From: a virus | Virus record (IMG/VR): IMGVR_UViG_3300021964_000015 | Length of the DNA: 64,000 bases | Strand: one strand, 5' to 3' | Part shown: positions 3,396-62,724 of the stretch, piece by piece | How positions within the stretch are numbered: position 1 is the first letter of the stretch | Layout of the letters: each line of letters begins with the position of its first letter | Position numbers and translations under genes: made by a program | The notes under the pieces: model-generated | What the model was told of the DNA's origin: nothing | The model's input: only the letters and a program-made list of their open reading frames with translations | Database searches by the model: none

Positions 3396-4592
3396 ATGGC
3401 AAAGATTTTGTATCACGGCGACGCAGCGGTGCAGACGGGATTTGGGCGAGTTGCTGAAAACCTGCTTCCCGAGCTAGCAAAGGAGCATGAAATTGTTGTA
3501 TGTGGAATCAATTGGTGGGGAGATCCCCATGATCTCCCTTATCGCATGTATCCAGCACATGCTGGTGGTTCCGATCCATTTGGTTCGCATCGTTTGCAGG
3601 AGCTTCTTGTGAAAGAGCGCCCTGATTTGGTGTTTGCCGTGAATGATATTTGGATTTTGAACAAGCTTTGGCGTGTGGCTAAGCCATTGAAAGAAAAGCT
3701 TGGCTTTAAGTGGTATGGATATTTTCCCACTGATAGCTATGGCTTTTTCCCAGAAGTGTTCAATGAATGCAAGGAATGGGATGGCATGGCTACTTACACT
3801 AATTTTGGTTTAGAGGAAGTGCGCAAAGCGGGGTGTGAAATGCCTTGTGACGTAATTCCTCATGGCATTAATCATTCGACATTCTTCCCGGTGAAGAAGG
3901 AAGAGGCACGTAAAGCACTTGGCCTTCCCGAAGATGCATTTTTTGTATTTAATGGCAACCGAAATCAACCACGTAAACGAATTGATTTGACCATCAAGGC
4001 ATTTATTAAGTTTGCTCTTGACAAGCCAGAGGCTCGACTGTGGTTGAATATGGGAGCAAAGGATCAAGGGTGGGATTTGATTCCCTTGTTTAAGCGTTTT
4101 TCTCGTGACTTTGGTTACGAGCCTACAGGCAAGTTGGTTTTAACCAGCAAGGATTTTGACGTGACAAACTGTCTTCCCATTGACAAACTAAATCTTGTTT
4201 ATAACGCTTGTGATATTGGCGTGAACACTTGCATTGGTGAAGGTTGGGGCCTTGTAAATTTTGAACACGCTGCAACTGGCGTGGCGCAAATTGTACCGGA
4301 CCACACATCGCTTAAGGAGATCTTCAATGAAATTCCTCGCATTCCCATTGAAAGCTGGGAGGTTGATTGCAATTATGGCCTTGACCGTGGCGTTCCTTCT
4401 GTCGATGGAATGGTGCAAATTCTTAATCACTACTACGAAAATCGCGAAGACCTTGAGAAAGTAGGCAAGTGGTGCTATTCTGCTTTGCAGCAGGAGAAGT
4501 ATCAATGGGAGAAGATTGGCGAGTCCGTGAGGACTATTGTCAACAACGTGCTGAAAGAAAGCACTGCTGGCAAGGGATTTGGTGATGCCTAA
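3396..4592 (+). CDS. Glycosyltransferase, GT-B fold (GT4-like)
   Basis: TGFGRV N-terminal motif, NRNQPRKRID, and EX7E motif EGWGLVNFE. Confidence 0.88.
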   Translation: MAKILYHGDAAVQTGFGRVAENLLPELAKEHEIVVCGINWWGDPHDLPYRMYPAHAGGSDPFGSHRLQELLVKERPDLVFAVNDIWILNKLWRVAKPLKEKLGFKWYGYFPTDSYGFFPEVFNECKEWDGMATYTNFGLEEVRKAGCEMPCDVIPHGINHSTFFPVKKEEARKALGLPEDAFFVFNGNRNQPRKRIDLTIKAFIKFALDKPEARLWLNMGAKDQGWDLIPLFKRFSRDFGYEPTGKLVLTSKDFDVTNCLPIDKLNLVYNACDIGVNTCIGEGWGLVNFEHAATGVAQIVPDHTSLKEIFNEIPRIPIESWEVDCNYGLDRGVPSVDGMVQILNHYYENREDLEKVGKWCYSALQQEKYQWEKIGESVRTIVNNVLKESTAGKGFGDA

Positions 4593-5271
4593 GCGCAAAA
4601 TTAGAGTGGGAATTCCCACTCTTTCTTGTTATGACAAGCTTATTTATTTGTGCGATCATTTGTTGAATGATGAGCACCCCCGCTTAGAGGCGGAGGTGCT
4701 CATTTTGGACAATGGCGGGCGAATGCAAAATAGCGGAGCTATAAATGAGCTTGCGGAACTTTGCGATACGGAGAAATGGAAGGTTGCAGTGCCTCCGTAT
4801 AACTTAGGCGTTGCAAAATCTTGGAACTATCTTATTAATCAGTTGAATCAATGCATCATTTCCAATGATGACGTGGTGTTTGGACTGAATGACATTGAAA
4901 TGTTCTTGGAGGCGGCAGATGCAAATCCCGGCTCTATCCTTTTGGAGACGAATCATCCAGTTGGAGGTTTTTCTACTTTCTACGTGAATCGCCCAGAGCT
5001 TTGGCTGTCAATGGGAGGGTTTGATGAATTATTTGCGCCTGCTTATTTTGAGGACAACGATTGCCGTTGGCGCTTGCTTGTTGAGAATAATCCGGCAGTA
5101 AAAGTTAATCTTCCCTCATGGAGTCACGACAATTCAAGTACTTTACATCGCGGAGATGATCATTACAAGCGCATGCATTGGTGCTGCTTTGAAAGGAACA
5201 AAGCTTATTACCAAGTGAAATGGGGCGGACTGCCTGGCAAGGAACAATTTACAACAGCATTTAACAAGTGA
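4585..5271 (+). CDS. Glycosyltransferase, GT-A fold (GT2-like)
   Basis: ILDNG, NLGVAKSWN, SNDDV (DxD-like), GGFDELFAPAYFEDND; overlaps the GT4 stop. Confidence 0.85.
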   Translation: MPKRKIRVGIPTLSCYDKLIYLCDHLLNDEHPRLEAEVLILDNGGRMQNSGAINELAELCDTEKWKVAVPPYNLGVAKSWNYLINQLNQCIISNDDVVFGLNDIEMFLEAADANPGSILLETNHPVGGFSTFYVNRPELWLSMGGFDELFAPAYFEDNDCRWRLLVENNPAVKVNLPSWSHDNSSTLHRGDDHYKRMHWCCFERNKAYYQVKWGGLPGKEQFTTAFNK

Positions 5272-5273
5272 TC

Positions 5274-5816
5274 ATGGCTCATTACGAACAGCAGCAATTC
5301 ATGGGAGCAATGCGTTACTCCCTTCCATCGTTCTTTATTGGCGGAAGGATTGTTGAAATTGGCAGCCTTGACATCAATGGAAGCGTTAGGCGCTTTTTTG
5401 AAAAGCCAAAAGAATACATTGGCATTGATGTGGGCGCTGGTCCTGGTGTTGACGTGGTGTGTGAAGGGCAGAATTACGATGGCGCCACCAGTAGTTTTGA
5501 TGTGGCGGTTTCAGCGGAATGCTTTGAGCACAATCCGTATTGGAAAGAAACCTTCTCGAACATGGTGCGAATGGTTCGAGATGAGGGGCTTGTGCTTATG
5601 ACTTGCGCAACAACTGGACGCCCGGAACACGGCACGACAAGGAGTCATGCTGGAAGTAGCCCTTTAACAGTGGCGAAAGGATGGGAATACTATCAGAATT
5701 TGACAGAGGAAGATTTTGAAGATACTTTTGATTTGGAAAACATGTTTTCGGAATATTGTTTTAATGTGAATAAGAATAGTCATGATCTTTATTTTTGGGG
5801 GATTGTCAAAAAATGA
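5274..5816 (+). CDS. Class I SAM-dependent methyltransferase
   Basis: VEIGSLDING (motif I), YIGIDVGAGPGVD, FDVAVSAECFEH. Confidence 0.85.
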   Translation: MAHYEQQQFMGAMRYSLPSFFIGGRIVEIGSLDINGSVRRFFEKPKEYIGIDVGAGPGVDVVCEGQNYDGATSSFDVAVSAECFEHNPYWKETFSNMVRMVRDEGLVLMTCATTGRPEHGTTRSHAGSSPLTVAKGWEYYQNLTEEDFEDTFDLENMFSEYCFNVNKNSHDLYFWGIVKK

Positions 5817-6109
5817 CTGCCAAGCAACGCCAGTCCAAGATGCGTAAGGTGATGAAAGAGTTTGCTGCGGGCACCCTTAAAAGCAGCTCTGGTGAAGTGG
5901 TGAAAAACCGCAAGCAAGCACTTGCCATTGCATTAAGCGAAGCTGGTATGAGCAAGGGTGACAAGAGCGACGCTTATTGGGACGCTTACATTGATACGAT
6001 GTGTGGCTCTATGAGCAAGGAAAACGCAGAAGAGGAGATGGATGAAAGTGCTGGTGAAAAGCGCTGCAAAGGCTACTTGGCTGCGGTTAAGAAAAACAAG
6101 AAAAAATAG
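5813..6109 (+). CDS. DUF6496-like small basic protein
   Basis: KVMKEFAAGTLKSSSGEVVKNRKQALAIALSEAG; ATGA/stop overlap with the methyltransferase. Confidence 0.7.
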   Translation: MTAKQRQSKMRKVMKEFAAGTLKSSSGEVVKNRKQALAIALSEAGMSKGDKSDAYWDAYIDTMCGSMSKENAEEEMDESAGEKRCKGYLAAVKKNKKK

Positions 6110-6164
6110 GATCTTGGATTGTTTCCATAGGCAATTGTGCGTTTAAGATGCACAAAAAGCGAAG

Positions 6165-6488
6165 TTGCCAGTGGACAACATCAGAGTGGTCAGGGAAGAA
6201 GAGGATGGCATTAATGTGATGGAGGCGTTGCAGATTTTGTCTCGCAACGCTCATCGCAACACTTCTAGGTGGGAACTTGTTGAGAAGCAAGTGTTTAAAA
6301 ATGGGCGATTAGAGGAAACGCATGAATATGTGGTGAGTGAATATGACACGCCTGATCCACAATTTGAGCCTGGCAAGTTTTTAATTTTTGAAGCTGTTGC
6401 AATGGCAAAGGCTTACATCATGGAAGGCATTGAAGAGCAACTTGCTGCCATTCGTGGTGAGGATGATGATGACGATGATGAGGACTAG
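6165..6488 (+). CDS. Hypothetical acidic protein
   Basis: Fills the gap, poly-Asp tail; start may be GTG 6171. Confidence 0.6.
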   Translation: MPVDNIRVVREEEDGINVMEALQILSRNAHRNTSRWELVEKQVFKNGRLEETHEYVVSEYDTPDPQFEPGKFLIFEAVAMAKAYIMEGIEEQLAAIRGEDDDDDDED

Positions 6489-6767
6489 TTAGTCGTTTGT
6501 TGCATGAACAACAAACGACGGATAGCCCATAAGCCATAAAACGCTTAAGCCAAAAACGCCACTCATCACTTTGATTTGAGCAACATCTGGCGCGAGGATG
6601 CCATTTTCAATGCGGGAAATGGTTGCTTGGTCGCAGAATAATAATTCCGAGAGAGATTGCTGAGACAGTCCGCAGTTAAGGCGAGCGTCCCGCACTCGGG
6701 AACCTATGAGCATTTTGGCTTCAGCGAGTGAAGATTTGGGACTTTTTACCTTTCTGGAACCGAGCAT
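6489..6767 (-). CDS. XRE/Cro-family helix-turn-helix regulator
   Basis: IGSRVRDARLNCGLSQQSLSELLFCDQATISRIENG. Confidence 0.85.
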   Translation of the reverse strand: MLGSRKVKSPKSSLAEAKMLIGSRVRDARLNCGLSQQSLSELLFCDQATISRIENGILAPDVAQIKVMSGVFGLSVLWLMGYPSFVVHATND

Positions 6768-39888: not shown

Positions 39889-41342
39889 TGAGTTTGGTCT
39901 GGAGCCCTGATTACGCACCAGTAGACGGCGATTTTGCTGATGTGTCCTTGCTTCTAAAGGGTGAGGGCACCAATGGCAGCACGACCATTTTGGATAGTAG
40001 TAGCAATAATTTGAGTGTTACTGCAAATGGTGACGCTCAGATTAGTACAGCGGTGAATACACCGTTCGGCACTGGTGATGGCGTGCTGGCGTTTGATGGG
40101 ACGGGTGATTACCTGCAAGCTGCTGAAAGTAATTCAAATTTAACTTTTGATACTGGTGATTTTACGGTAGAATTTTTTATCTACTACAACAGTACAAATA
40201 CTGACGATTTGCTTTTAGATTGGAGAAACTCGGTAGGCGGACAAGATCGAATTGTTTTATTTCAGACTGGAGGTAATTTAACCCTATTTAATCCCAACAA
40301 CACCACCACTACTATTTTTACACCCAGTACAAATATATGGTATCATGTATCTTTGTGCAGAAGCAGCGGAACTTTAAGGGCTTATGTTGATGGTATTCAG
40401 GTTTTTAGTGTTGCAAATGCTGTAAATTATTTACCTCCCGGATCCACGAATGGCATATACATAGGCGGTATTGCATTTGCTTCCGGATATGACTTTAACG
40501 GCTACCTCTCCAACATTCGCATCACCAAAGGCGTAGCACGTTACACCGAAAACTTCACACCTCCCACCGCACCGTTCCCGATCCTTTCTCCTTCTACTCG
40601 CATCGAAGTGGGCGACGGCTTTGACGTAGAAGCCGCCAACTACATCCTTGCCGTGGAAGCAGCTGACACAGCCGTTCTCGAGCCTGCTGTACGCACTGCA
40701 ATCAACGACTTCGTGGTTGGCTGCAAGAGCGATGGCATCTGGAACGCTATTAAGGCAAGCTGCCTGTTGTGTGGCGCTCGTACTTTGGAGGGTGCGTTGG
40801 TGCCGTTGAAAGGCAGTGCTCCTACTAACTTTAACTTTACGTTGTCTGATTACGATAGGGAGCTTGGCTTGAAAGGTGATGGCAGCACAAAGTATCTGGA
40901 CAGTAATCGAAATAACAATACTGATTTACAGGACAGCAGACATTTGGCAGTTTGGCGATCTGCAGATGGCGATGGAGGATTACTAGGTAGCAATGGCACA
41001 AGCACAGGCGATAGCCACCTTTACAATGGTTTTGGTAATTTTATTACCAGAAATAGCTCTAGTGTGGCATCAAACCAGCTTCTATCTTTATCACCCAGTC
41101 CGACTTTTTATGGAACATCGCGAGCATCTTCCTCTAGTTTTACAGTTAGACACGGCGGAGTAGACTACATAGCATTAATCAACAGTGAAATCCCGGCGAA
41201 CCGTAATATTAGGGTATTTGAAACAGCAGGAAAATCTACTGCCCGCATCGCCTTCTACTCAATCGGTGAATCCCTAGACCTCGCCAAGCTTGACACCCGA
41301 GTGACCGACCTTATCACCGCCATTGGAGCTGCTATCCCATGA
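39888..41342 (+). CDS. LamG/concanavalin-like domain virion protein
   Basis: VSLLL.GEGTNGST...DSS, FDGTGDYL, GDFTVEF, WYHV...R, FNGYLSNIRITKGVARYT.NFTPPTAPF. Confidence 0.75.
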   Translation: MSLVWSPDYAPVDGDFADVSLLLKGEGTNGSTTILDSSSNNLSVTANGDAQISTAVNTPFGTGDGVLAFDGTGDYLQAAESNSNLTFDTGDFTVEFFIYYNSTNTDDLLLDWRNSVGGQDRIVLFQTGGNLTLFNPNNTTTTIFTPSTNIWYHVSLCRSSGTLRAYVDGIQVFSVANAVNYLPPGSTNGIYIGGIAFASGYDFNGYLSNIRITKGVARYTENFTPPTAPFPILSPSTRIEVGDGFDVEAANYILAVEAADTAVLEPAVRTAINDFVVGCKSDGIWNAIKASCLLCGARTLEGALVPLKGSAPTNFNFTLSDYDRELGLKGDGSTKYLDSNRNNNTDLQDSRHLAVWRSADGDGGLLGSNGTSTGDSHLYNGFGNFITRNSSSVASNQLLSLSPSPTFYGTSRASSSSFTVRHGGVDYIALINSEIPANRNIRVFETAGKSTARIAFYSIGESLDLAKLDTRVTDLITAIGAAIP

Positions 41343-42130
41343 CACTACAACCTGGAAAACTAGTCCTGGCGAAGGACTACATCCACGGTCCTGCTGACCC
41401 TGATGTTGCTGCATACATTGCTGCGGTTGAAACGGCAGATGATCAAGGGCTTGAAGAAGAAGTAAAAGCTGCCTATTCAAACTTTATTACTGGCTGCAAA
41501 GCTGACGGTATCTGGGACGCTATCAAAGCATCTTGTATCCTTGCAGGTGCTAGGACGTTAGATGGAGCGTTGGTTCCACTTGCTGGTACGGCGCCTACTA
41601 ACTTTAACTTTGTGGCGGCGGATTACGATCGGAAGACGGGTTTGGTTGGTGATGCTAGCACAAAGTATTTAGATAGCAATAGAGATAACAATGCCGACCC
41701 TCAAAATAACCAGCATTTATCGGTTTATCTAAGCAAATTAGTTGGCACCGAAGGGCAATTCTATATTGCCAGTGATTACACCGTGCAAGGAATTTCTGGT
41801 ATCAGCGATGTAAATGTTAGATCAAGAAATACATCGCTTAACAATATAAACAGTAATTTTATAGGTTTCACAGGAATAAGCCGTTCTCCTGCTACGGACC
41901 TTTCAAATGAATTTGTTCATAGATCCAATGGTTCTGATACGACTTTAGCAAAAGCATCACAAACACCTGGCTCTTCTAATATTTATGTTTTTGGCAGCGT
42001 CACTTTAAGTAATCCTTACCGCACTGACGCCCGCCTAGCCTTCTACTCCATCGGCGAATCCCTAGACCTTGCCCTACTTGACGCCCGCGTATCTACCCTT
42101 ATCTCAGACCTTGGAGCTGCTATCCCATGA
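41339..42130 (+). CDS. Virion protein paralogous to the C-terminal half of 39888-41342
   Basis: GCK.DGIW.AIKASC.L.GARTL.GALVPL.G.APTNFNF ... AR.AFYSIGESLDLA.LD.RV..LI...GAAIP in both. Confidence 0.7.
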   Translation: MTLQPGKLVLAKDYIHGPADPDVAAYIAAVETADDQGLEEEVKAAYSNFITGCKADGIWDAIKASCILAGARTLDGALVPLAGTAPTNFNFVAADYDRKTGLVGDASTKYLDSNRDNNADPQNNQHLSVYLSKLVGTEGQFYIASDYTVQGISGISDVNVRSRNTSLNNINSNFIGFTGISRSPATDLSNEFVHRSNGSDTTLAKASQTPGSSNIYVFGSVTLSNPYRTDARLAFYSIGESLDLALLDARVSTLISDLGAAIP

Positions 42131-56015: not shown

Positions 56016-56378
56016 TTAAGCGCTTTGTGCTTGGGTGTCGATGATATTGTCACCAAGACCAGCATCACGTAACTTTTCCAGCATGGATACCATGATGGTT
56101 GCTTGCGCCTGAGTGCGATCTAGGAACTCGCTAGCACGCTCTGGAGAGATCGTATGGACCGAACCATTAGGTTCTACGTAGCGCCAGCTTCCATCGGGTT
56201 GTGGGTCCCCCTGGAGGGCAAGACGTTCGGAGTTATGGACATACCTGAACTCAACGTTGTGGTAGTCCTTAAGACCATCTTGTCCTGTCCATGTGGCACC
56301 AAGGTTGTACCGTGCATCCTGATCAGCGAATGCATGGAACTCAGGAACGAGATGCTTGAAAGCAGCGAAGATAGACAT
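56016..56378 (-). CDS. Hypothetical early protein
   Basis: Biased codons, C/A-rich leader. Confidence 0.65.
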   Translation of the reverse strand: MSIFAAFKHLVPEFHAFADQDARYNLGATWTGQDGLKDYHNVEFRYVHNSERLALQGDPQPDGSWRYVEPNGSVHTISPERASEFLDRTQAQATIMVSMLEKLRDAGLGDNIIDTQAQSA

Positions 56379-56403
56379 GATTGAAGTTGGAGTTGGGTTG
56401 GTA

Positions 56404-56433
56404 GCTGGGACTTACACCTTAAGGATGCCCAGC
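56404..56433 (-). ncRNA. Motif B bulged hairpin, copy 1
   Basis: GCTGGG-CATCC-TTAA-GGTG-TAAGT-CCCAGC. Confidence 0.6.
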
Positions 56434-56434
56434 A

Positions 56435-56935
56435 TTAAGTTACATATTGTGAATTCAAAATGTAATGCAAAGTCCCCTTTGAGCTTATCTTAAACTTTTC
56501 CATCAAAGCTTTATAGCCCAGCCCTTGTAAATGATCATCTTTAATTTGCTTAACTTGTTCATTGCTAAATTTTCTTATAGAACTAGATGCTTTTATTGCA
56601 TGCTGCAATCTGTCTTTAGAAGGCCGATCAAGCATATTGTCTTTGTTTGTTCCAATACAAATGTTTTCAAAAGAGTTATCCTTTTGATTGCCGTTTAAAT
56701 GTCTAACAACTATACCGGGTTCAAACAACTTATCTTGGTATTTTTCATAAGCAACTAAACGATGCAAAAATACTTTGATTGATTTGCGTTGTATTCTTAT
56801 ATTGAAATAAAAATAACCTGCTCTAGAAGATAATAATTTTAAAGGTTGCTTTTTGTGTAAACCTAGTACACAATTATCTCTTACTCGATAACCTTTTTCA
56901 TAAGCAAGAGTTAAAGCTGTTTGTGATTCGTTCAT
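56435..56935 (-). CDS. HNH homing endonuclease
   Basis: LHRLVA...VVRHLNGNQKDN...NI..GTNKDN..D; markedly AT-rich. Confidence 0.88.
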   Translation of the reverse strand: MNESQTALTLAYEKGYRVRDNCVLGLHKKQPLKLLSSRAGYFYFNIRIQRKSIKVFLHRLVAYEKYQDKLFEPGIVVRHLNGNQKDNSFENICIGTNKDNMLDRPSKDRLQHAIKASSSIRKFSNEQVKQIKDDHLQGLGYKALMEKFKISSKGTLHYILNSQYVT

Positions 56936-56951
56936 TTGCAAAATTAAAAAT

Positions 56952-57038
56952 TGGTGCAGACGGCGGGAGTCGAACCCGCAAGGGCAAAAGCCCGACGCAT
57001 TTTAAGTGCGTTACGTAGACCTATTCCGTCACGTCTGC
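56952..57038 (-). tRNA. trnL: tRNA-Leu (anticodon TAA), CCA encoded
   Basis: GCAGACG/CGTCTGC acceptor, ACGCA-CTTAAAA-TGCGT anticodon arm, long variable arm, GCGGG-TTCGACT-CCCGC, ACCA end. Confidence 0.95.
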
Positions 57039-57245
57039 ATCACTTGGGCTTACGTCCACATCAATTGATGTGGACTGCCAAGTGTGATCTTGGGGTAATG
57101 GTTCAGTACCATATTCCCAAGTATCGTAATCTTCCTCGTTACGTGGATCATCCTCAATCAAAATGTATTGAGGTGAATTGTCATCAATGTACTCACCAAG
57201 ATTAGCTAGTGCCATAGCAAGTAGCTGAGCATCAGTGTGTTCCAT
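57021..57245 (-). CDS. Hypothetical acidic protein
   Basis: Fills the gap; last 18 nt overlap the tRNA. Confidence 0.5.
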   Translation of the reverse strand: MEHTDAQLLAMALANLGEYIDDNSPQYILIEDDPRNEEDYDTWEYGTEPLPQDHTWQSTSIDVDVSPSDADVTE

Positions 57246-57335
57246 AGTTGATAAGGGCGCCCTTTAACGAGGATAGGACGCCCCAGCTGAAGATCAGCTA
57301 ACAGATACTAGCGGATCCAGAAAGGATGTCAAATG

Positions 57336-57578
57336 CTAGTAAGCATCGACAAGTTGCCATTGAGGATCGAGCTGATCAAGATAGCTGCAGAAGCTGTCTT
57401 CATCAAGAGGGATGGGATCCCCTGGATCAATTGCGATAGTAACTTCGCACAATGCTGGAGCCCACTCCTCAGGTTCGAAGTGAGTTGCGCGATAGAGGAG
57501 GCGCATCTCATCAACAATTGCTGTAACTTTGACATGGGTGTCAGATACGATTGTTTCTTCAATTGAAAGTACAGTCAT
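57336..57578 (-). CDS. Hypothetical protein
   Basis: TGATG-coupled to upstream ORF. Confidence 0.6.
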   Translation of the reverse strand: MTVLSIEETIVSDTHVKVTAIVDEMRLLYRATHFEPEEWAPALCEVTIAIDPGDPIPLDEDSFCSYLDQLDPQWQLVDAY

Positions 57579-57745
57579 CAGTCACACTCCACGAATTGAC
57601 AATTGGGTGAGATGTAGCAACGATACCTAGTCCAGGCACGAGCAGTTTCCCACTCACCCTGGAAGGTATCTTCTCTAACGATTGCTTTCTCTGCGCGTTT
57701 AACAGCGCAGGAAGCAAGATTGATACGATCAAACAGATTAAGCAT
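57578..57745 (-). CDS. 55-aa hypothetical protein
   Basis: Translated by hand: MLNLFDRINLASCAVKRAEK...FVECD; C/A-rich leader. Confidence 0.55.
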   Translation of the reverse strand: MLNLFDRINLASCAVKRAEKAIVREDTFQGEWETARAWTRYRCYISPNCQFVECD

Positions 57746-57771
57746 GATTGAAGTTGCAGTTGGGTTGAAAG

Positions 57772-57798
57772 CTGGGACTTACACCAAAGGATGCCCAG
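57772..57798 (-). ncRNA. Motif B, copy 2
   Basis: CTGGG-CATCC-TTT-GGTG-TAAGT-CCCAG. Confidence 0.6.
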
Positions 57799-57823
57799 TG
57801 CTTTAGATTCTCTTAATGTTTGG

Positions 57824-58024
57824 TTAGAACAACTTGATGTTCCGTTTGCTCAGGCCTGTGCCAGGAATACTAATTGATCCACGGACACCTGAGCCACGAG
57901 CATTAATAGTTAGTTGTAAAGGACCAAGCTTGATTGATTTGGAATACGATTGAACACCATGTTCTGTAACATTGAATCCAGCAATGGTCCTATCAAAGTT
58001 GATAGAGGATTTAGGTTTAGTCAT
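57824..58024 (-). CDS. DUF4236-like protein
   Basis: KSIKLGPLQLTIN..G....SISIPGTGLS. Confidence 0.65.
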   Translation of the reverse strand: MTKPKSSINFDRTIAGFNVTEHGVQSYSKSIKLGPLQLTINARGSGVRGSISIPGTGLSKRNIKLF

Positions 58025-58130
58025 GATTAAAGATTAGTTGAAGGTTGATTAAAGGTTAATTAAAGTAATTAACTAATACTAATAAAAGATTCCCCCCTGG
58101 TTCTCTTCCAGGGGGGTTTGGGGGGAAAGC

Positions 58131-58466
58131 TTACGACCAGGCGATACGCTTTTCCTCGACTGCTTTCTTATACATCTCATCCATTGTCATAGGTGGTTCA
58201 CTACCGTAACCAAGATCTGCATCACTTGGTTCGTAGTCCAGTTCATTCTCTAGCATTGGAATGATCTCATCATCAATCATTGCATACATACTTGGCGTGA
58301 GATATTGATCCATCTCATGCCTCTTGGATTCACGTGCAATGACATCTTTCAATAATGTCAAAGCTTGTTGAACGTAGTAGTACTCGTTCTTGACCCAGTT
58401 CACTTTAAGAACTGCGTCAGAGGGAACACCAGTGGGAGGCACTTCAGGAAAGCTTTGGTTGGTCAT
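58131..58466 (-). CDS. Hypothetical protein
   Basis: Packed ORF. Confidence 0.6.
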   Translation of the reverse strand: MTNQSFPEVPPTGVPSDAVLKVNWVKNEYYYVQQALTLLKDVIARESKRHEMDQYLTPSMYAMIDDEIIPMLENELDYEPSDADLGYGSEPPMTMDEMYKKAVEEKRIAWS

Positions 58467-58496
58467 GAGCTGTGTTGTGAAAGGTGTACGGTTGGT

Positions 58497-58545
58497 ATGG
58501 GACTTATACCACAGATGAGAATAGTTCTCAATAGTGGATGCCCAT
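58497..58545 (-). ncRNA. Motif B, copy 3 (Fur-box-like palindrome in loop)
   Basis: ATGGG-CATCCAC-TATTGAGAACTATTCTCATCT-GTGGTA-TAAGT-CCCAT. Confidence 0.6.
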
Positions 58546-58549
58546 GCAT

Positions 58550-58777
58550 TTACTCAGGCTTCTTTAAGATCCACCTGGTGTAATGCTCAGCAGTGCGATC
58601 GACTGCTACCAGTTTATGCTCCTCCAGTCGTTGGATAGCAATCATGTAATACTTCAACCTACTTGGGTTTGGAAGCATCGGGACATAACATGGTTCGTCA
58701 GGACGTTTCTTCATGTGATTTAAGTAATACATGTAGAGATTACGTTGATTGACAGTTAATCCAATTGGAGGTTGCAT
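58550..58777 (-). CDS. Small winged-helix-like protein
   Basis: LTVNQRNLY...AIQRLEEHKLVAV. Confidence 0.5.
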   Translation of the reverse strand: MQPPIGLTVNQRNLYMYYLNHMKKRPDEPCYVPMLPNPSRLKYYMIAIQRLEEHKLVAVDRTAEHYTRWILKKPE

Positions 58778-58793
58778 AAGTTCAGTTGATTAG

Positions 58794-59165
58794 TTAGATG
58801 AGTCCGAGCAACGATAGCCAGCTGTCTGGATGATCGGGTTCAACCTCATCATCACCTGGAGTAAAGCATACGCTATCCATTGTCCATTCCTCTATGTCTT
58901 CGTTGCACGGGATGTCGTACCATCCTTGGAGCGCATCCTTGTCTTCTTGCGAGTAGTTGCCTCCGGTTGGTTTCCAGTAGAGGCTAAGGGTTCCTTTGGT
59001 GCGGTACACTGATCCATTCTTGGGGTAGGTGTCAAGCTTTCCGAGGACAACTCCTTTGGGATCGAAGTTGATTTCAGCTTGGTACTGCTCAAGGCATTCG
59101 TCGCCTTCGAATGGTTCGTAACCAGTGATTGCTTTGGCGACTGCTTGGGTTTCTGGATGAAGCAT
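58794..59165 (-). CDS. Hypothetical protein
   Basis: C-terminal DSVC.TPG.DEVEPDHPDSWLSLLGLI. Confidence 0.65.
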   Translation of the reverse strand: MLHPETQAVAKAITGYEPFEGDECLEQYQAEINFDPKGVVLGKLDTYPKNGSVYRTKGTLSLYWKPTGGNYSQEDKDALQGWYDIPCNEDIEEWTMDSVCFTPGDDEVEPDHPDSWLSLLGLI

Positions 59166-59256
59166 GACAGTAGTTCCGTAATGATGAGTGAAGTGATTGC
59201 AATAAAAAGGATGACGATATCACCGTCATCCCAGCATTGTTTCCAAGATGATTGAT

Positions 59257-59532
59257 TCATTTGGTCTTCTCCCAATCTTCGCAACGCTTGGTGTAGTAGA
59301 TGTCAAAGTTTGGGTGAAGCTTACGACAGATATCTTCTGCTTGTAATGCAGTATCTGCCATGTAACCCAATGCATCATTCCTCATCTGGAGTGTGTCATA
59401 ACCGACACATACCCAATGGATTTCAGTAAGCTCTGCTTCACGCATTGCTTCTTCTAGTTCGAATGCATAATCTGCCATGGTATCCATGAGATCAGCATTG
59501 CGTTGTGCATCGATGAAGGTAGGGTCCTGCAT
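59257..59532 (-). CDS. Hypothetical protein
   Basis: ORF with C/A-rich leader. Confidence 0.6.
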   Translation of the reverse strand: MQDPTFIDAQRNADLMDTMADYAFELEEAMREAELTEIHWVCVGYDTLQMRNDALGYMADTALQAEDICRKLHPNFDIYYTKRCEDWEKTK

Positions 59533-59560
59533 GGTTTGAATTGAGGTAGGGTTTGGGAAG

Positions 59561-59613
59561 CACTAGGACTTACACCACAGATGAGAATAGTTCTCAATAG
59601 TGGATGCCTAGTG
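59561..59613 (-). ncRNA. Motif B, copy 4 (Fur-box-like palindrome in loop)
   Basis: CACTAGG-CATCCAC-TATTGAGAACTATTCTCATCT-GTGGTG-TAAGT-CCTAGTG. Confidence 0.6.
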
Positions 59614-59680
59614 TTTGCTGAAGCATTGGCATGTATTGGCAAATCTTACGTGCCAACCAATACTTCAGATATAACAGGGT

Positions 59681-60172
59681 TTAGATCGTAATATTATTCC
59701 ATGAAATACCACGATCAATATTGGATATGGAAGTGCTTGTCACTCCATAAATCTTAGCTAGTTCTTTGAAGCCTTCATTGCGAGTTGTATACTCATTCAT
59801 GAATGCTTGATCGGCTAATAGTTGTTTGATTTCACGCACCTCCTTACCTCCTAACTTGGCATTACCGTTGACATAATGCCTGGATCTAGCCATACGCTTC
59901 CTTAGGCTAATGTTTGGAGGATCTACCTTAACAGCTTTTGCCTGTGGTGTCGGCTGTTTCGGGGGTGTGGGGGAAGAGAACAAGTCGAGTAGATCAACCT
60001 TCTCAACAGGTTGCTTACTTTGATTACCAACTGATTTCAACAGTTGGAAACCTAGGGTAACTGATTGCCCATCCTTTGTAACTGAGATGGTCACCTTGTT
60101 ATCCCTGGTAATCACACTGACGTGATCTGGTTTTGAAACATCAACTTGACTGAGTGCTTCCATGGGATGCAT
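59681..60172 (-). CDS. Protein with C-terminal HTH
   Basis: NAKL....VREIK...ELAKIYGVTSTSISNI.RG.SW. Confidence 0.65.
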   Translation of the reverse strand: MHPMEALSQVDVSKPDHVSVITRDNKVTISVTKDGQSVTLGFQLLKSVGNQSKQPVEKVDLLDLFSSPTPPKQPTPQAKAVKVDPPNISLRKRMARSRHYVNGNAKLGGKEVREIKQLLADQAFMNEYTTRNEGFKELAKIYGVTSTSISNIDRGISWNNITI

Positions 60173-60188
60173 TAGGTGCGTTGAAATA

Positions 60189-60224
60189 ATACCTAGTACT
60201 CATCCAAAGACAAGTACTAGGTAT
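60189..60224. repeat. 12-bp perfect inverted repeat
   Basis: ATACCTAGTACT-N12-AGTACTAGGTAT, upstream of the HTH gene. Confidence 0.75.
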
Positions 60225-60247
60225 AGAGTCTGAGGTCAGGTCACACG

Positions 60248-60475
60248 CTACATATGTGGTGTGAACCTAGGATCAGCGAGGAGTTGTGCAATGGAACACG
60301 CATCCTCCTCTACTTCTTCCTTGGTGCATCCCTCCCATTCATCCGATTGATTCTCGATGACCTGGCAACCCAGGTCTTCGAGTTGACATGCGAACATACC
60401 AAAGCTTTGTGCTTCGCCATAGACATGCCAAATACCGGAACCGTAGTCAGAGATTAACGCTACGTGAATGCTCAT
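60248..60475 (-). CDS. Hypothetical protein
   Basis: ATG 60475 in listed ORF. Confidence 0.55.
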   Translation of the reverse strand: MSIHVALISDYGSGIWHVYGEAQSFGMFACQLEDLGCQVIENQSDEWEGCTKEEVEEDACSIAQLLADPRFTPHM

Positions 60476-60662
60476 GATGACAAGAAGTGTGTTGTGGGTT
60501 GGGATTGGTGATATCAATACCTAACAATGCAGGTACTGATAGTGCAGCAAGGATGATTGCAAGTGCTCCCACTGCAATATCATCCCATCGAGTCTTATTG
60601 GACTCGGGATAAGAATCAATGGTCACGAAGAGGTTCCTCCGCAGGCGTACGATCTGTTTCAT
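60447..60662 (-). CDS. Small membrane protein
   Basis: TM segment IAVGALAIILAALSVPALLGI. Confidence 0.55.
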   Translation of the reverse strand: MKQIVRLRRNLFVTIDSYPESNKTRWDDIAVGALAIILAALSVPALLGIDITNPNPQHTSCHHEHSRSVNL

Positions 60663-60680
60663 TGAGGTGATTTGGAATCC

Positions 60681-60717
60681 CTGGGACTTACACCACACAT
60701 ATTATGTGGATGCCCAG
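60681..60717 (-). ncRNA. Motif B, copy 5
   Basis: CTGGG-CATCCACAT-AATAT-GTGTGGTG-TAAGT-CCCAG. Confidence 0.6.
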
Positions 60718-60720
60718 TGA

Positions 60721-61083
60721 TTAGTTGATGAGGTAACGATATGCAAACAACATACCAATGTCATTCCTGATATCGTTAACTACCTTGTAATACTTCTGTC
60801 TGTTCTGGTACATGTAGATGCAACCTTCCCAGAACATCTGGATGATCAACACAATGAGTGCTACCAAGTGGATTGCTACCCACTTACAGTGTTGATGTAA
60901 ATACTGACGATAGAAGCTACCAATGGCATAACCTGCCTGGTATGTCTTCTTAATCATTGAAGCAATGATGTTCAAGCACCACAGCATCGCTGTGATGCTA
61001 AAGATTTCTCCACCTAGTGCATACAACTTACTTGCCAGTTGTACTGCTGTGTCGAGGTGGTGGATGAGAGTGAGATAATTCAT
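60721..61083 (-). CDS. Membrane protein
   Basis: Two hydrophobic segments. Confidence 0.55.
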   Translation of the reverse strand: MNYLTLIHHLDTAVQLASKLYALGGEIFSITAMLWCLNIIASMIKKTYQAGYAIGSFYRQYLHQHCKWVAIHLVALIVLIIQMFWEGCIYMYQNRQKYYKVVNDIRNDIGMLFAYRYLIN

Positions 61084-61173: not shown

Positions 61174-61437
61174 CTAGTGGATAAGAGATTGGATGTATTC
61201 CATCTCCATGATGATGCCGTAGTTGTAGTAGTCCTCCATCTCCTGGTGAAGTTCTTTGGCACCAGTAGGCAAGCCTTCCATTAATGTACGAGTGTCAACG
61301 GCTATCCACTCGTATGGGCCATCAAAGTTAGGTGTTGCTATTAGGCACCACTTCTCGAAATGGATTTGATTCTTACTGCCGTACCATGTGACACGATACG
61401 TTTTCTCAGCCAAGGGTTGATAGATGAGGGGCTCCAT
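61174..61437 (-). CDS. Hypothetical early protein
   Basis: ATG 61437 (MEPLIYQP). Confidence 0.55.
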   Translation of the reverse strand: MEPLIYQPLAEKTYRVTWYGSKNQIHFEKWCLIATPNFDGPYEWIAVDTRTLMEGLPTGAKELHQEMEDYYNYGIIMEMEYIQSLIH

Positions 61438-61451
61438 GATCTTTAGTTGAA

Positions 61452-61520
61452 TAGATGCCACGGGATTGTGGCAATAACTGGGCAGGGGATTGCACCCTGC
61501 CTCCCGCTTTAACGGATCAG
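61452..61520 (-). ncRNA. Motif C tRNA-like junction plus hairpin, copy 1
   Basis: CTG-AT-CCGT-TAAA-GCGG-GA-GGCAGGG-TGCAATC-CCCTGCC-CAG then TGCCAC-AATCCC-GTGGCA. Confidence 0.5.
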
Positions 61521-61723
61521 TTGATGAAATCTTCAGGATCCATGAGGTAAAGAAAACACATAGCTGTGTAGATCTTATGCTCATCCCAAGCTTCCGCTTC
61601 GGGATGAAGCCTGATCACCTCCTGGAACTGGTTAACAAACCATTGAGCATCGGCACCGTACACAGGTACGGAACCAAGCTCATCGTTTGCCATAACCTTG
61701 TTAGCGATTTCGAGTAGTGTCAT
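61517..61723 (-). CDS. Hypothetical early protein
   Basis: ATG 61723 (MTLLEIAN). Confidence 0.55.
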   Translation of the reverse strand: MTLLEIANKVMANDELGSVPVYGADAQWFVNQFQEVIRLHPEAEAWDEHKIYTAMCFLYLMDPEDFIN

Positions 61724-61735
61724 GATGGTGTAAAG

Positions 61736-61804
61736 TAGATGCCACGGGATTGTGGCAATACCTGACCAGGGGATTTGATCCCCCGGCATCACGCTTGTGG
61801 TCAG
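61736..61804 (-). ncRNA. Motif C, copy 2
   Basis: CTGAC-CAC-AAGC-GTG-ATG-CCGGGGG-ATCAAAT-CCCCTGG-TCAG then a 25-bp block identical to copy 1. Confidence 0.5.
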
Positions 61805-61947
61805 ATGAAATCGTAGTTGTCTTCGTTGCCCATGTAATTAATCAGTTCATCAAATAAATACGTCAGTTGAGAATCATCAACTTCACGTACAAGATCTGCA
61901 AACTGAAGCATGAGCTGTTCCAAACGATTAGCTTGGTCGATGTTCAT
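61801..61947 (-). CDS. 48-aa acidic protein, first gene of the leftward early unit
   Basis: Translated by hand: MNIDQANRLEQLMLQFADLVREVDDSQLTYLFDELINYMGNEDNYDFI. Confidence 0.55.
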   Translation of the reverse strand: MNIDQANRLEQLMLQFADLVREVDDSQLTYLFDELINYMGNEDNYDFI

Positions 61948-62451: not shown

Positions 62452-62478
62452 AAAAAAGCCGGGGTCTTTTTCCCCGGC
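62452..62478 (-). terminator. Intrinsic terminator
   Basis: GCCGGGG-N7-CCCCGGC-TTTTTT on the - strand, after 62515-62724. Confidence 0.75.
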
Positions 62479-62514
62479 CTTTAACTAAGTTTTAATTAAG
62501 TTCTAATTAAACTC

Positions 62515-62724
62515 TCATCTACGGGAATCTTTTGATTTTTTTGCAGCAACAGCTGCTTCAAAATAAGATTCTTTATCAGGACGTTGCCTTACTAGCTCTT
62601 CGCGTGCGCCAGAGATAAAATTACGTACATCAATCTCATCACCACCGCTATCTGCAAGCTTTTTCGCTTCATTTTCAATTGCTTCTAACGCAATAATGCG
62701 CTCAGCCCGGTTCTTTGGGTTCAT
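62515..62724 (-). CDS. Hypothetical protein
   Basis: ORF followed by a terminator. Confidence 0.6.
   Translation of the reverse strand: MNPKNRAERIIALEAIENEAKKLADSGGDEIDVRNFISGAREELVRQRPDKESYFEAAVAAKKSKDSRR

Follow-up and report, generated by a model that had tools for sequence, protein, structure and literature searches.

Structured cis-acting elements in phage mRNAs are known from a few model phages, namely the T7 R sites, nut, put and the T4 operators. The RNase III sites of T7 consist of a helix of ~20 bp, with upper and lower stems of ~9–10 bp each, and their conservation is confined to T7 relatives. The function of lambda boxB depends on its loop, which is GNRA-like and bound by N, and boxA lies upstream of it. 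The PeSL of T4-type phages, in which a terminator-like stem-loop is joined to an early promoter, were reportedly characterized as "mobile regulatory cassettes" by Arbiol and colleagues in 2010, while integron attC sites pair R''/R' boxes (RYYYAAC / GTTRRRY) with a tyrosine recombinase. The put RNA of HK022 is a promoter-proximal, two-stem structure of ~70 nt that works on a universally conserved host enzyme without any phage protein (PMC9378689).

Here we analyzed a hairpin motif in a 64-kb stretch of viral DNA (the window), where it lies in the sense strand of the early region of an S-EIVl-like cyanophage. A search for GGCATCC-N(0-30)-GGTRTAAGTCC returned exactly five matches in the 64 kb, on the - strand only (Table 1), compared with none in any of 100 shuffled sequences, and a covariance model trained on foreign copies found the same five sites and no others, in agreement with the five bulged hairpins of a preliminary description. 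Minimum-free-energy folds of the copies gave the proposed shape, a lower stem, a 5-nt 3' bulge and an upper stem. The compensatory outer-stem changes that had been described were seen in the lower stems (GCUG/CAGC, CUG/CAG, AUG/CAU, CACUA/UAGUG), and the reported distance of 18–30 nt to the start codon was borne out by measurement. The R position of copy 3 is A (GGUAUAAGUCC), and the apical insert of copy 4 contains a UUGAGAAC...UUCUCA sub-hairpin. On sequence evidence, the five hairpins are true copies of an uncatalogued, strongly covarying family spread over many phages, and not a private repeat.

Table 1. Hairpin copies and the tRNA gene of the window, with the placement of each copy between its neighboring genes.
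Feature	Position	Strand	Exact pattern match	Apical insert (nt)	Support	Placement	Leader	Hairpin base to ATG (nt)	Next ATG
Copy 1, minimal hairpin, loop UUAA	56404–56433	-	56408–56429	4	covariance model 48 bits; fold	1 nt past TAA of HNH endonuclease ORF 56435–56941	56379–56403	25	56378
Copy 2, minimal hairpin, 3-nt loop	57772–57798	-	57775–57795	3	covariance model 36.4 bits; fold	25 nt past stop of ORF 57824–58024	57746–57771	26	57745
Copy 3, lower stem AUG/CAU, insert as in copy 4	58497–58545	-	58500–58542	25	covariance model; fold	4 nt past TAA of ORF 58550–58777	58467–58496	30	58466
Copy 4, lower stem CACUA/UAGUG	59561–59613	-	59566–59608	25	fold z = -4.4; covariance model	67 nt past stop of ORF 59681–60172	59533–59560	28	59532
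Copy 5, insert lengthening upper helix	60681–60717	-	60684–60714	13	covariance model 36.3 bits; fold	3 nt past TAA of ORF 60721–61083	60663–60680 (G-poor)	18	60662
tRNA-Leu(UAA)	56952–57038	-			Rfam match	transcribed in same direction as hairpins			

The constant part of the motif is an asymmetric internal loop, in which CAU on the 5' strand faces URUAAG(U) on the 3' strand and two G-C pairs close the loop below. Positions C12, A13, U23, U25, A26, A27 and G28 are held almost without exception across relatives, with A13 replaced by G in a few copies. The invariance claimed earlier holds, for the bulged U and the last U of UAAGU, inside the window but not in relatives, where U14 changes to G and U29 to C or A. 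The stems behave differently from this loop in that they covary. Zero mismatches were found at the two outer pairs of 61 gap-free foreign copies (GC40/UA15/AU5/CG1 and UA35/CG17/AU5/GC2), and their covariation score was matched by none of 500 shuffles. Among 86 matches from S-EIVl-like contigs 90.8% of cells were paired, which no shuffle out of 500 equalled; these matches include G-U pairs and have nearly no mismatches at inner stem positions. Natural variants also covary within the core (..CA with UG.., ..UC with GA.., ..CU with AG..), and the ortholog of copy 1 in a 97%-identical relative (L105) carries a double compensatory change (GGCAUUC...GAUG). In addition, of 60 four-base loops 31 have a GNRA or UNCG sequence, where ~5% would be expected, and the motif points in the same direction as its neighboring ORFs in 122 of 137 instances. 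That the motif folds as RNA is indicated by covariation in both helices, by the G-U pairs, by the enrichment of GNRA/UUCG loops and by this co-orientation, and the original proposal of a structured, strand-specific RNA site is thereby upheld.

A reading of GG-UGUAAGU-CC as a T-arm is excluded by the covariation. The 11-nt GAAA tetraloop receptor is CCUAAG/UAUGG, and the motif is like it, judged by sequence alone, in having U-A-A-G opposite A-U, such that a U-A pair, an A-A platform, a closing G-C and a flipped U are possible; it is unlike the receptor in that its long strand has two extra nucleotides (U-R) as well as one extra U. Conceivably, though improbably, the internal loop forms a tertiary RNA module sufficient in itself, tetraloop-receptor- or T-loop-like, that docks on the host 30S subunit (near the mRNA exit) or on RNA polymerase without a phage protein and so provides a portable, IRES- or put-like expression handle for single cistrons in phages of different hosts.

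The exact core was found in at least 120 IMG/VR stretches representing at least six unrelated phage lineages. Its carriers are aquatic phages, mostly cyanobacterial, among them siphovirus-, myovirus- and podovirus-like lineages. Unrelated lineages with a single copy each show an identical core, and in these other lineages the copy lies ahead of late structural genes (major capsid, tail tube, portal), which makes the initial description of an early-gene device too narrow. Matches in bacterial genome contigs and in 401 cyanobacterial genomes were at chance level. The motif stands outside the named RNA families, as had been supposed: a search of Rfam 15 gave no match to any window copy (56350–60800, lax filters) even at E≤10 and none to the motif in 18 foreign loci, with the tRNA alone passing across the whole window, and we found no paper describing the motif. 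No protein family is common to all five complete or near-complete carrier genomes and the window, and T7-type RNA polymerase (PF00940) is absent from S-EIVl, from one complete carrier and from one that is 92% complete. The lack of both a common protein and a T7-type polymerase suggests a host factor or action by RNA only.

Within the window the motif sits at internal, non-overlapping gene junctions; none was found at ATGA-overlap junctions or at junctions where a terminator is followed by an AT-rich stretch. In 92 of 159 instances, the base of the hairpin is found 0–14 nt past the stop codon of the preceding gene. The core-to-ATG distance peaks at 30–34 nt (60/140), and the leaders have ~10% G and no Shine-Dalgarno sequence. 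The most constant neighbor of the motif is the upstream stop codon rather than the start codon. Most likely, the motif marks gene boundaries on multi-gene mRNAs. Our preferred reading, to which we assign a probability of about 40%, is that it punctuates the message post-transcriptionally, serving processing, protection or ribosome entry. Each copy would be transcribed within a polycistronic mRNA, with two helices of free sequence flanking the invariant loop, the putative recognition surface for a conserved component that is not phage-encoded, such as a host endoribonuclease or the ribosome and its associated proteins. Placed just past the stop codon, the hairpin might block or direct RNA decay, protect the upstream message at its 3' end and set the 5' edge of the downstream leader, keeping that G-poor leader open for ribosome entry despite its lack of a Shine-Dalgarno sequence. 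A downstream gene without translational coupling could in this way become an independent, stable and translatable unit.

Several features of this arrangement recall the RNase III sites of T7 and T3 (R0.3–R1.3), which are likewise sense-strand hairpins with an asymmetric internal loop, placed between cistrons of a polycistronic early mRNA, just past a stop and shortly before the next start, with several per operon. The analogy with T7 drawn earlier is apt for this intercistronic layout but not for helix length. Minimal copies (copies 1 and 2 and most foreign ones) have a lower stem of 5–9 bp and an upper stem of 4 bp with a tetraloop, 11–13 bp in total, which falls short of the approximately two turns of dsRNA of a classical T7-type substrate, and their internal loop, unlike T7 sites, is invariant across unrelated phage lineages. 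A punctuation element also has counterparts in organellar tRNA punctuation and its stem-loop surrogates, where structured RNA lies between cistrons. In the relative L033, the tRNA-Leu(UAA) also seen in the window has a CCA end, and immediately after it come a CA-rich leader of 21 nt and an ATG, so that a tRNA occupies the slot held elsewhere by the hairpin. The motif itself, however, is not tRNA-shaped, and there is no evidence of RNase P or RNase Z. Against punctuation, it must be said that no candidate enzyme fits, as the minimal copies are short for RNase III, and that host genomes have no such site to hint at a natural substrate. The uneven occurrence of the motif among close relatives also counts against punctuation, as does the restriction of close ATG spacing mainly to the S-EIVl-like lineage. 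Metatranscriptome contigs span copies 2, 3 and 5 (copy 2 in contig X18 record 2), in favor of RNA over DNA; being assembled contigs, they are evidence at most for the existence of uncut RNA.

The narrow ATG spacing in the S-EIVl-like lineage also brings to mind a translational operator or enhancer whose action involves no cleavage, co-regulating genes by turning initiation on or off at the AUG ~25–30 nt downstream in partnership with a RegA/Com-like phage protein, a host RNA-binding protein or the 30S subunit. This possibility, which we regard as somewhat doubtful, accords with the G-poor leaders devoid of Shine-Dalgarno sequences, with the presence of one copy per uncoupled cistron and with the position of other lineages' copies ahead of highly expressed capsid and tail genes. 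In addition, Motif A, another structured element that occurs repeatedly, lies ahead of further early genes, suggesting regulons that are defined by 5' elements. However, no phage protein is common to all carriers, and the constant feature across lineages is the upstream stop rather than the downstream start. Tight AUG spacing is mostly a property of the S-EIVl-like lineage, in which the hairpin and leader may have been duplicated as one module, and the next start is 50–55, ~130 or ~600 nt away in other lineages. The KBS-S-2A-like lineage is an example, its motif overlapping the stop codon with the next gene ~600 nt off, as is a 127-kb lineage, where a tRNA and a long structured leader lie in between.

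Like lambda nut and HK022 put, the motif is a phage-only cis-acting RNA structure, and nut and put also lie in early transcripts. We consider it very unlikely, nonetheless, that it is a processive antitermination element whose nascent hairpin, with or without a factor, makes RNA polymerase read through intrinsic terminators of the early region. Terminator-like hairpins do occur on the same strand downstream of motif copies (62482–62454, 61158–61137, 58116–58092 and 55993–55976), and a partner that is apparently not phage-encoded is reminiscent of put. Those terminators, however, are followed by AT-rich promoter-like stretches and thus have the appearance of genuine operon ends. Furthermore, one element per operon would suffice, whereas the copies are present at nearly every internal junction and are not promoter-proximal, and in other lineages the motif is directly ahead of the capsid gene. 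Its architecture also departs from both models. The apical part varies freely from 3 to ~45 nt between the conserved halves across all copies, unlike the boxB loop, boxA-like matches are at chance level (45 vs 45 expected) with none adjacent to the motif, and no arginine-rich protein is common to all carriers; in place of the two-stem, 70-nt put fold there is a single hairpin of at least 27 nt. The antitermination analogy suggested at the outset is consequently not sustained.

The motif is patchy among close relatives, being missing from KBS-S-2A, MED4-184 and S-CBWM1, and is therefore dispensable or linked to a further feature. Such patchiness might be expected of a mobile regulatory cassette or recombination hotspot, in which the module of hairpin and leader would spread and reshuffle small genes, either because copies recombine homologously or because an ssDNA recombinase recognizes their structure, as in T4-type PeSL or integron attC, and in which conservation would come partly from that role. 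Matches of 30–45 nt confined to the hairpin join otherwise non-homologous neighborhoods in many relatives, an HNH gene adjoins copy 1, and homology breaks off at both edges of that copy, at 56433 relative to L105 and at 56405 relative to L014, L026, L044, L058 and two metatranscriptome contigs. As in PeSL, these are short repeated modules at small-ORF boundaries in a plastic early region, located at shuffling breakpoints, and the conserved boxes, extrahelical bases and variable apical part are reminiscent of attC. Edge breakpoints are nevertheless to be expected around any conserved element with diverging flanks, and the identical core in unrelated single-copy lineages leaves no partner copy for recombination. 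Unlike PeSL, the module has no promoter or U-tract, its conserved part is the internal loop, and no fused sigma-70-like promoter was found in or beside any copy, with only 18–30 nt from hairpin to ATG. The core has no attC R-box sequences, the carriers share no recombinase, and the GNRA/UUCG loops and G-U pairs favor RNA folding. A mobile cassette thus seems to us quite unlikely.

An extremely improbable explanation is a DNA-level promoter or dsDNA protein-binding site, recognized for example by a phage RNA polymerase or sigma factor. In its 5' half, CUGGGCAUCC(GUAA)G, the motif resembles the promoter of Syn5 RNA polymerase, which is ATTGGGCACCCGTAA followed by +1 G (PMC3950665), and the related phage KBS-S-2A encodes a sigma factor. 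However, the variable insert between the conserved halves is incompatible with the fixed geometry of a promoter, such as one of the single-subunit T7/Syn5 type, and the stems covary. The missing PF00940 polymerase argues in the same direction, as do Syn5's own promoters, which have no such hairpin, and KBS-S-2A, which lacks the motif.

Cyanobacteria make little use of Shine-Dalgarno sequences and are not known to have Rho. The motif is compact (at least 27 nt) and easily recognised, with well over a hundred independent instances showing textbook covariation, and merits an entry as a family, which would keep phage annotation from leaving these junctions blank. Potentially, it represents a new module for RNA-protein or RNA-ribosome recognition, and the hairpin could find use as a small portable gene-expression part for cyanobacteria. 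Knowing its partner would show how cyanobacterial phages express their internal cistrons.

Motif B, a sense-strand RNA hairpin with the core GGCATCC-N-GGTRTAAGTCC, was found five times in the window by a pattern scan, always on the - strand and with N of 3–25 nt, and none of 100 shuffled versions of the window held a match. The sequences flanking the core pair with each other and differ from copy to copy by compensatory changes, and minimum-free-energy folds gave all five copies one shape, comprising a lower stem, a 5-nt bulge on the 3' side, an upper stem and a variable tip. The coordinates, insert lengths and compensatory outer-stem changes reported in the preliminary description were thus all recovered, as was its spacing of 18–30 nt between hairpin and ATG.

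Copies of motif B in the window (core matches to the exact pattern)
Feature	Hairpin	Core	Strand	Match
Copy 1	56404-56433	56408-56429	-	exact pattern
Copy 2	57772-57798	57775-57795	-	exact pattern
Copy 3	58497-58545	58500-58542	-	exact pattern
Copy 4	59561-59613	59566-59608	-	exact pattern
Copy 5	60681-60717	60684-60714	-	exact pattern

The 25-nt apical inserts of copies 3 and 4 (58510-58534 and 59576-59600) contain a near-palindrome, UUGAGAAC-N-UUCUCA, which also occurs in the foreign IMG/VR loci L014, L032, L033, L044, L059 and L109. Several relatives keep its sequence despite a different predicted fold at that place, and the insert could represent a distinct site for protein binding added at the tip of the hairpin. 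A further hairpin on the - strand at 57250-57290 (CUGGGGCGUCC...GGGCGCCC), directly 5' of the ATG at 57245, has the 5' half (GGCGUCC) of a variant motif B without the UAAGU side, and is possibly the remnant of a copy or else a stem of other origin.

Of the two pairs that immediately flank the core, the first was G-C in 40, U-A in 15, A-U in five and C-G in one of 61 gap-free copies, and the second was U-A in 35, C-G in 17, A-U in five and G-C in two, with zero and two unpaired cells, respectively. The covariation score of these copies was higher than that of any of 500 shuffles or of any slid control. A covariance model derived from the 61 copies recovered 86 copies in 29 S-EIVl-like sources, in which 90.8% of cells were paired, a level reached by none of 500 shuffles. 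Covariation extends into the core when the pattern is relaxed, with GGCAUCA accompanied by UGUG.., GGCAUUC by GAUG.. and GGCAUCU by AGUG..; the ortholog of copy 1 in L105, a 97%-identical relative, differs by a double compensatory change of the GGCAUUC/GAUG type. By contrast, G10, G11, C12, A13 (G in a few copies), U23, R24, U25, A26, A27, G28, C30 and C31, numbered along the motif, are invariant or nearly so, while U14 is at times G and U29 at times C or A. Motif B therefore consists of two sequence-free helices around an asymmetric internal loop, which is CAU opposite URUAAG(U) and may resemble either the 11-nt tetraloop receptor core or a T-loop incorporated in an internal loop. Reading GG-UGUAAGU-CC as a T-arm was ruled out because its GG covaries with the upstream CC.

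Several observations favour a fold in the sense-strand transcript. Motif B runs with the surrounding ORFs in 122 of 137 instances, 31 of the 60 four-nucleotide loops are GNRA or UNCG compared with ~5% expected by chance, and G-U pairs are present that would become C-A mismatches on the complementary strand. In addition, among public RNA runs, Logan contigs from three metatranscriptomes covered small shares of the window, and contigs span copies 2, 3 and 5; this evidence is weak since the contigs could include contaminating DNA, as assemblies they carry no ends, strand or expression level, and uncovered stretches say nothing. That motif B acts as a promoter or binding site at the DNA level is scarcely credible to us. 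A resemblance to Syn5 promoters was rejected, as those of Syn5 do not form hairpins and PF00940, the T7-type RNA polymerase family, was found neither in S-EIVl nor in two near-complete carrier genomes.

Scanning IMG/VR with the exact pattern placed motif B in at least 120 stretches. Among the matches listed, 118 distinct exact-core instances remained after removal of duplicates, 87 with an outer stem of at least three consecutive pairs and 60 with a 4-nt loop. The 185,579 species genomes searched also contained at least 120 pattern matches, where roughly a thousand would be expected by chance in a collection of that size; among those listed, gap lengths were uniform or random, an outer stem of three or more pairs was present in 6 of 120 and a 4-nt loop in one. 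Three of 401 cyanobacterial genomes matched, versus seven matches to a reversed control pattern. An element of host genomes was rejected on the basis of these chance-like gap lengths, outer stems and control matches, which indicate that motif B is phage-borne.

Clustering of neighbouring ORFs resolved about 20 locus groups, the larger of which are described here. The cyanophage from which the window derives is siphovirus-like and a relative of Synechococcus phage S-EIVl; it encodes a portal, a tape-measure protein of 1520 aa, tail proteins, a family A DNA polymerase and ThyX, and its early region has patchy 70% DNA identity to KJ410740. S-EIVl has two copies of the motif (record positions 41433-41481 and 40723-40790), and S-EIVl-like phages carry several, all in the early region, as in one complete 80.6-kb genome (G001) with five copies at 57.0-63.3 kb. 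Siphoviruses near KBS-S-2A, S-H1 and P-HS2 (portal 78% identical) have one copy that overlaps the stop of a ~200-aa phrog_4652 ORF, the stop codon being the UAA of the bulge; as a general reading of that UAA this was rejected, since its frame is inconsistent in other lineages. Their portal gene lies ~500–600 nt past the motif with no convincing ORF between, and in L004 (1712-2335), L018 (3700-4300) and L046 this gap contains many GGC-containing short repeats and a strong GC hairpin closed by UUCG or GAAA; an uncharacterised non-coding RNA may be encoded there. In phages related to S-CBWM1 and S-TIM5 (capsid 64% identical), a single copy lies directly 5' of the major capsid gene, and a second hairpin and GGAG come after it. 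A 127-kb lineage with no close relative has one copy after the portal gene and before a long structured leader, with a tRNA 9 nt 3' of the hairpin in one member. A podovirus like HTVC019P and MEP301 has a copy between the capsid module and tail tube A, and a 245-kb contig has two. The podovirus and the lineage without a close relative led us to reject an element confined to cyanophages. Searches of the isolates KBS-S-2A, MED4-184, S-CBWM1 and Syn5 did not find motif B, which is therefore patchily distributed.

The neighbour that recurs most constantly in all lineages is a stop codon on the upstream side, with the hairpin base 0–14 nt past it in 92 of 159 instances; in other cases the hairpin overlaps the stop. 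On the downstream side, the distance from core to ATG in the S-EIVl-like lineage peaks sharply at 30–34 nt (60 of 140), and the leader between hairpin and ATG is C/A-rich, with about 10% G and without a Shine-Dalgarno sequence, an absence that does not discriminate as S-EIVl-like phages use such sequences rarely overall. A purely translational operator or enhancer, to which this spacing and leader are relevant, is in our judgement unlikely. Overlapping ATGA junctions in the window's early region are without motif B, as are those with a terminator-like hairpin and AT-rich stretch at 62482, 61158, about 60230 (read by eye and not listed by the terminator scan), 58116 and 55993; among the remaining internal junctions, five have motif B and two have another repeated element, "Motif A". 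The strong stem at 62454-62482 has 11 pairs with flanking A-runs and T-runs on both strands, and looks like a bidirectional terminator closing a small ORF (62515-62724); a ~500-nt AT-rich non-coding stretch lies beyond it. A second repeated intercistronic element, probably Motif A, occurs at 61719-61808 and 61435-61523 (-) as a hairpin resembling a T-arm (GGGGGAUCAAAUCCCCU / CAGGGUGCAAUCCCCUG) and, after it, a UGCCACAAUCCCGUGGCA hairpin that is identical in both, ~20 nt before an ATG, with up to five copies per locus in relatives (e.g., L033, L037, L064 and L112).

The surroundings of copy 1 vary between relatives. L033 has the tRNA-Leu of the window, ending in CCA, followed by a 21-nt CA-rich leader and the ATG, and in L014-type relatives and two metatranscriptome contigs another tRNA adjoins the leader exactly at the copy 1 end (56405); a tRNA can therefore replace the hairpin. 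In L105, 2.7 kb of other sequence (3851-6538) takes the place of a 920-nt window segment (56433-57352) holding a promoter-like site, a 74-aa ORF, tRNA-Leu and an HNH endonuclease gene (PF13392) whose G+C content is below that of its surroundings, and the right-hand breakpoint is exactly at the 5' base of copy 1. The 74-aa ORF (57021-57245) lies on the strand of tRNA-Leu(UAA) (56952-57038) and runs into the first 17 nt of the tRNA (overlap 57021-57038). A mobile cassette or a role in recombination is supported by the breakpoints on either side of copy 1, by the neighbouring HNH gene and by the patchy presence of motif B, but we regard it as quite improbable.

No match to motif B was found in Rfam at gathering thresholds or at E≤10, full-text literature searches for the core returned unrelated primers only, and topical searches did not locate a description of it. 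Motif B differs from RNase III sites, nut, put, attC, PeSL and any Rfam family in at least one tested defining feature of each, and we consider an antitermination element very improbable. As intercistronic punctuation, the closest analogue is the early RNase III sites of T7.

All-against-all blastp revealed no protein family common to five carrier genomes and the window. Two candidate small families are each common to three lineages: one of ~120 aa with RAARRPKPPSL, rejected as a partner because it is not in the window or in one carrier, and one of 90–123 aa, rejected because it is also in KBS-S-2A, a phage without motif B. The former, with conserved AAQWGADQELEACC in addition to RAARRPKPPSL (L255 18732-19088, L251 13705-14067, L262 13217-13579), has no Pfam domain, is very abundant (at least 8000 clusters of the protein collection searched) and is multi-copy in S-EIVl-like early regions, with several paralogs in L109, L026 and L014. 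Since no phage-encoded partner was found, probably either the host supplies the partner or the RNA functions without one.

The reading we tentatively prefer, at a probability of about 0.4, is that motif B is an intercistronic punctuation element on polycistronic mRNA, which fits its anatomy and from which we infer a mechanism. The invariant loop would serve as the recognition site for a conserved factor. By shielding the 3' end upstream of it and setting the 5' limit of an unstructured leader, the hairpin would leave a downstream cistron that is independent and translatable.
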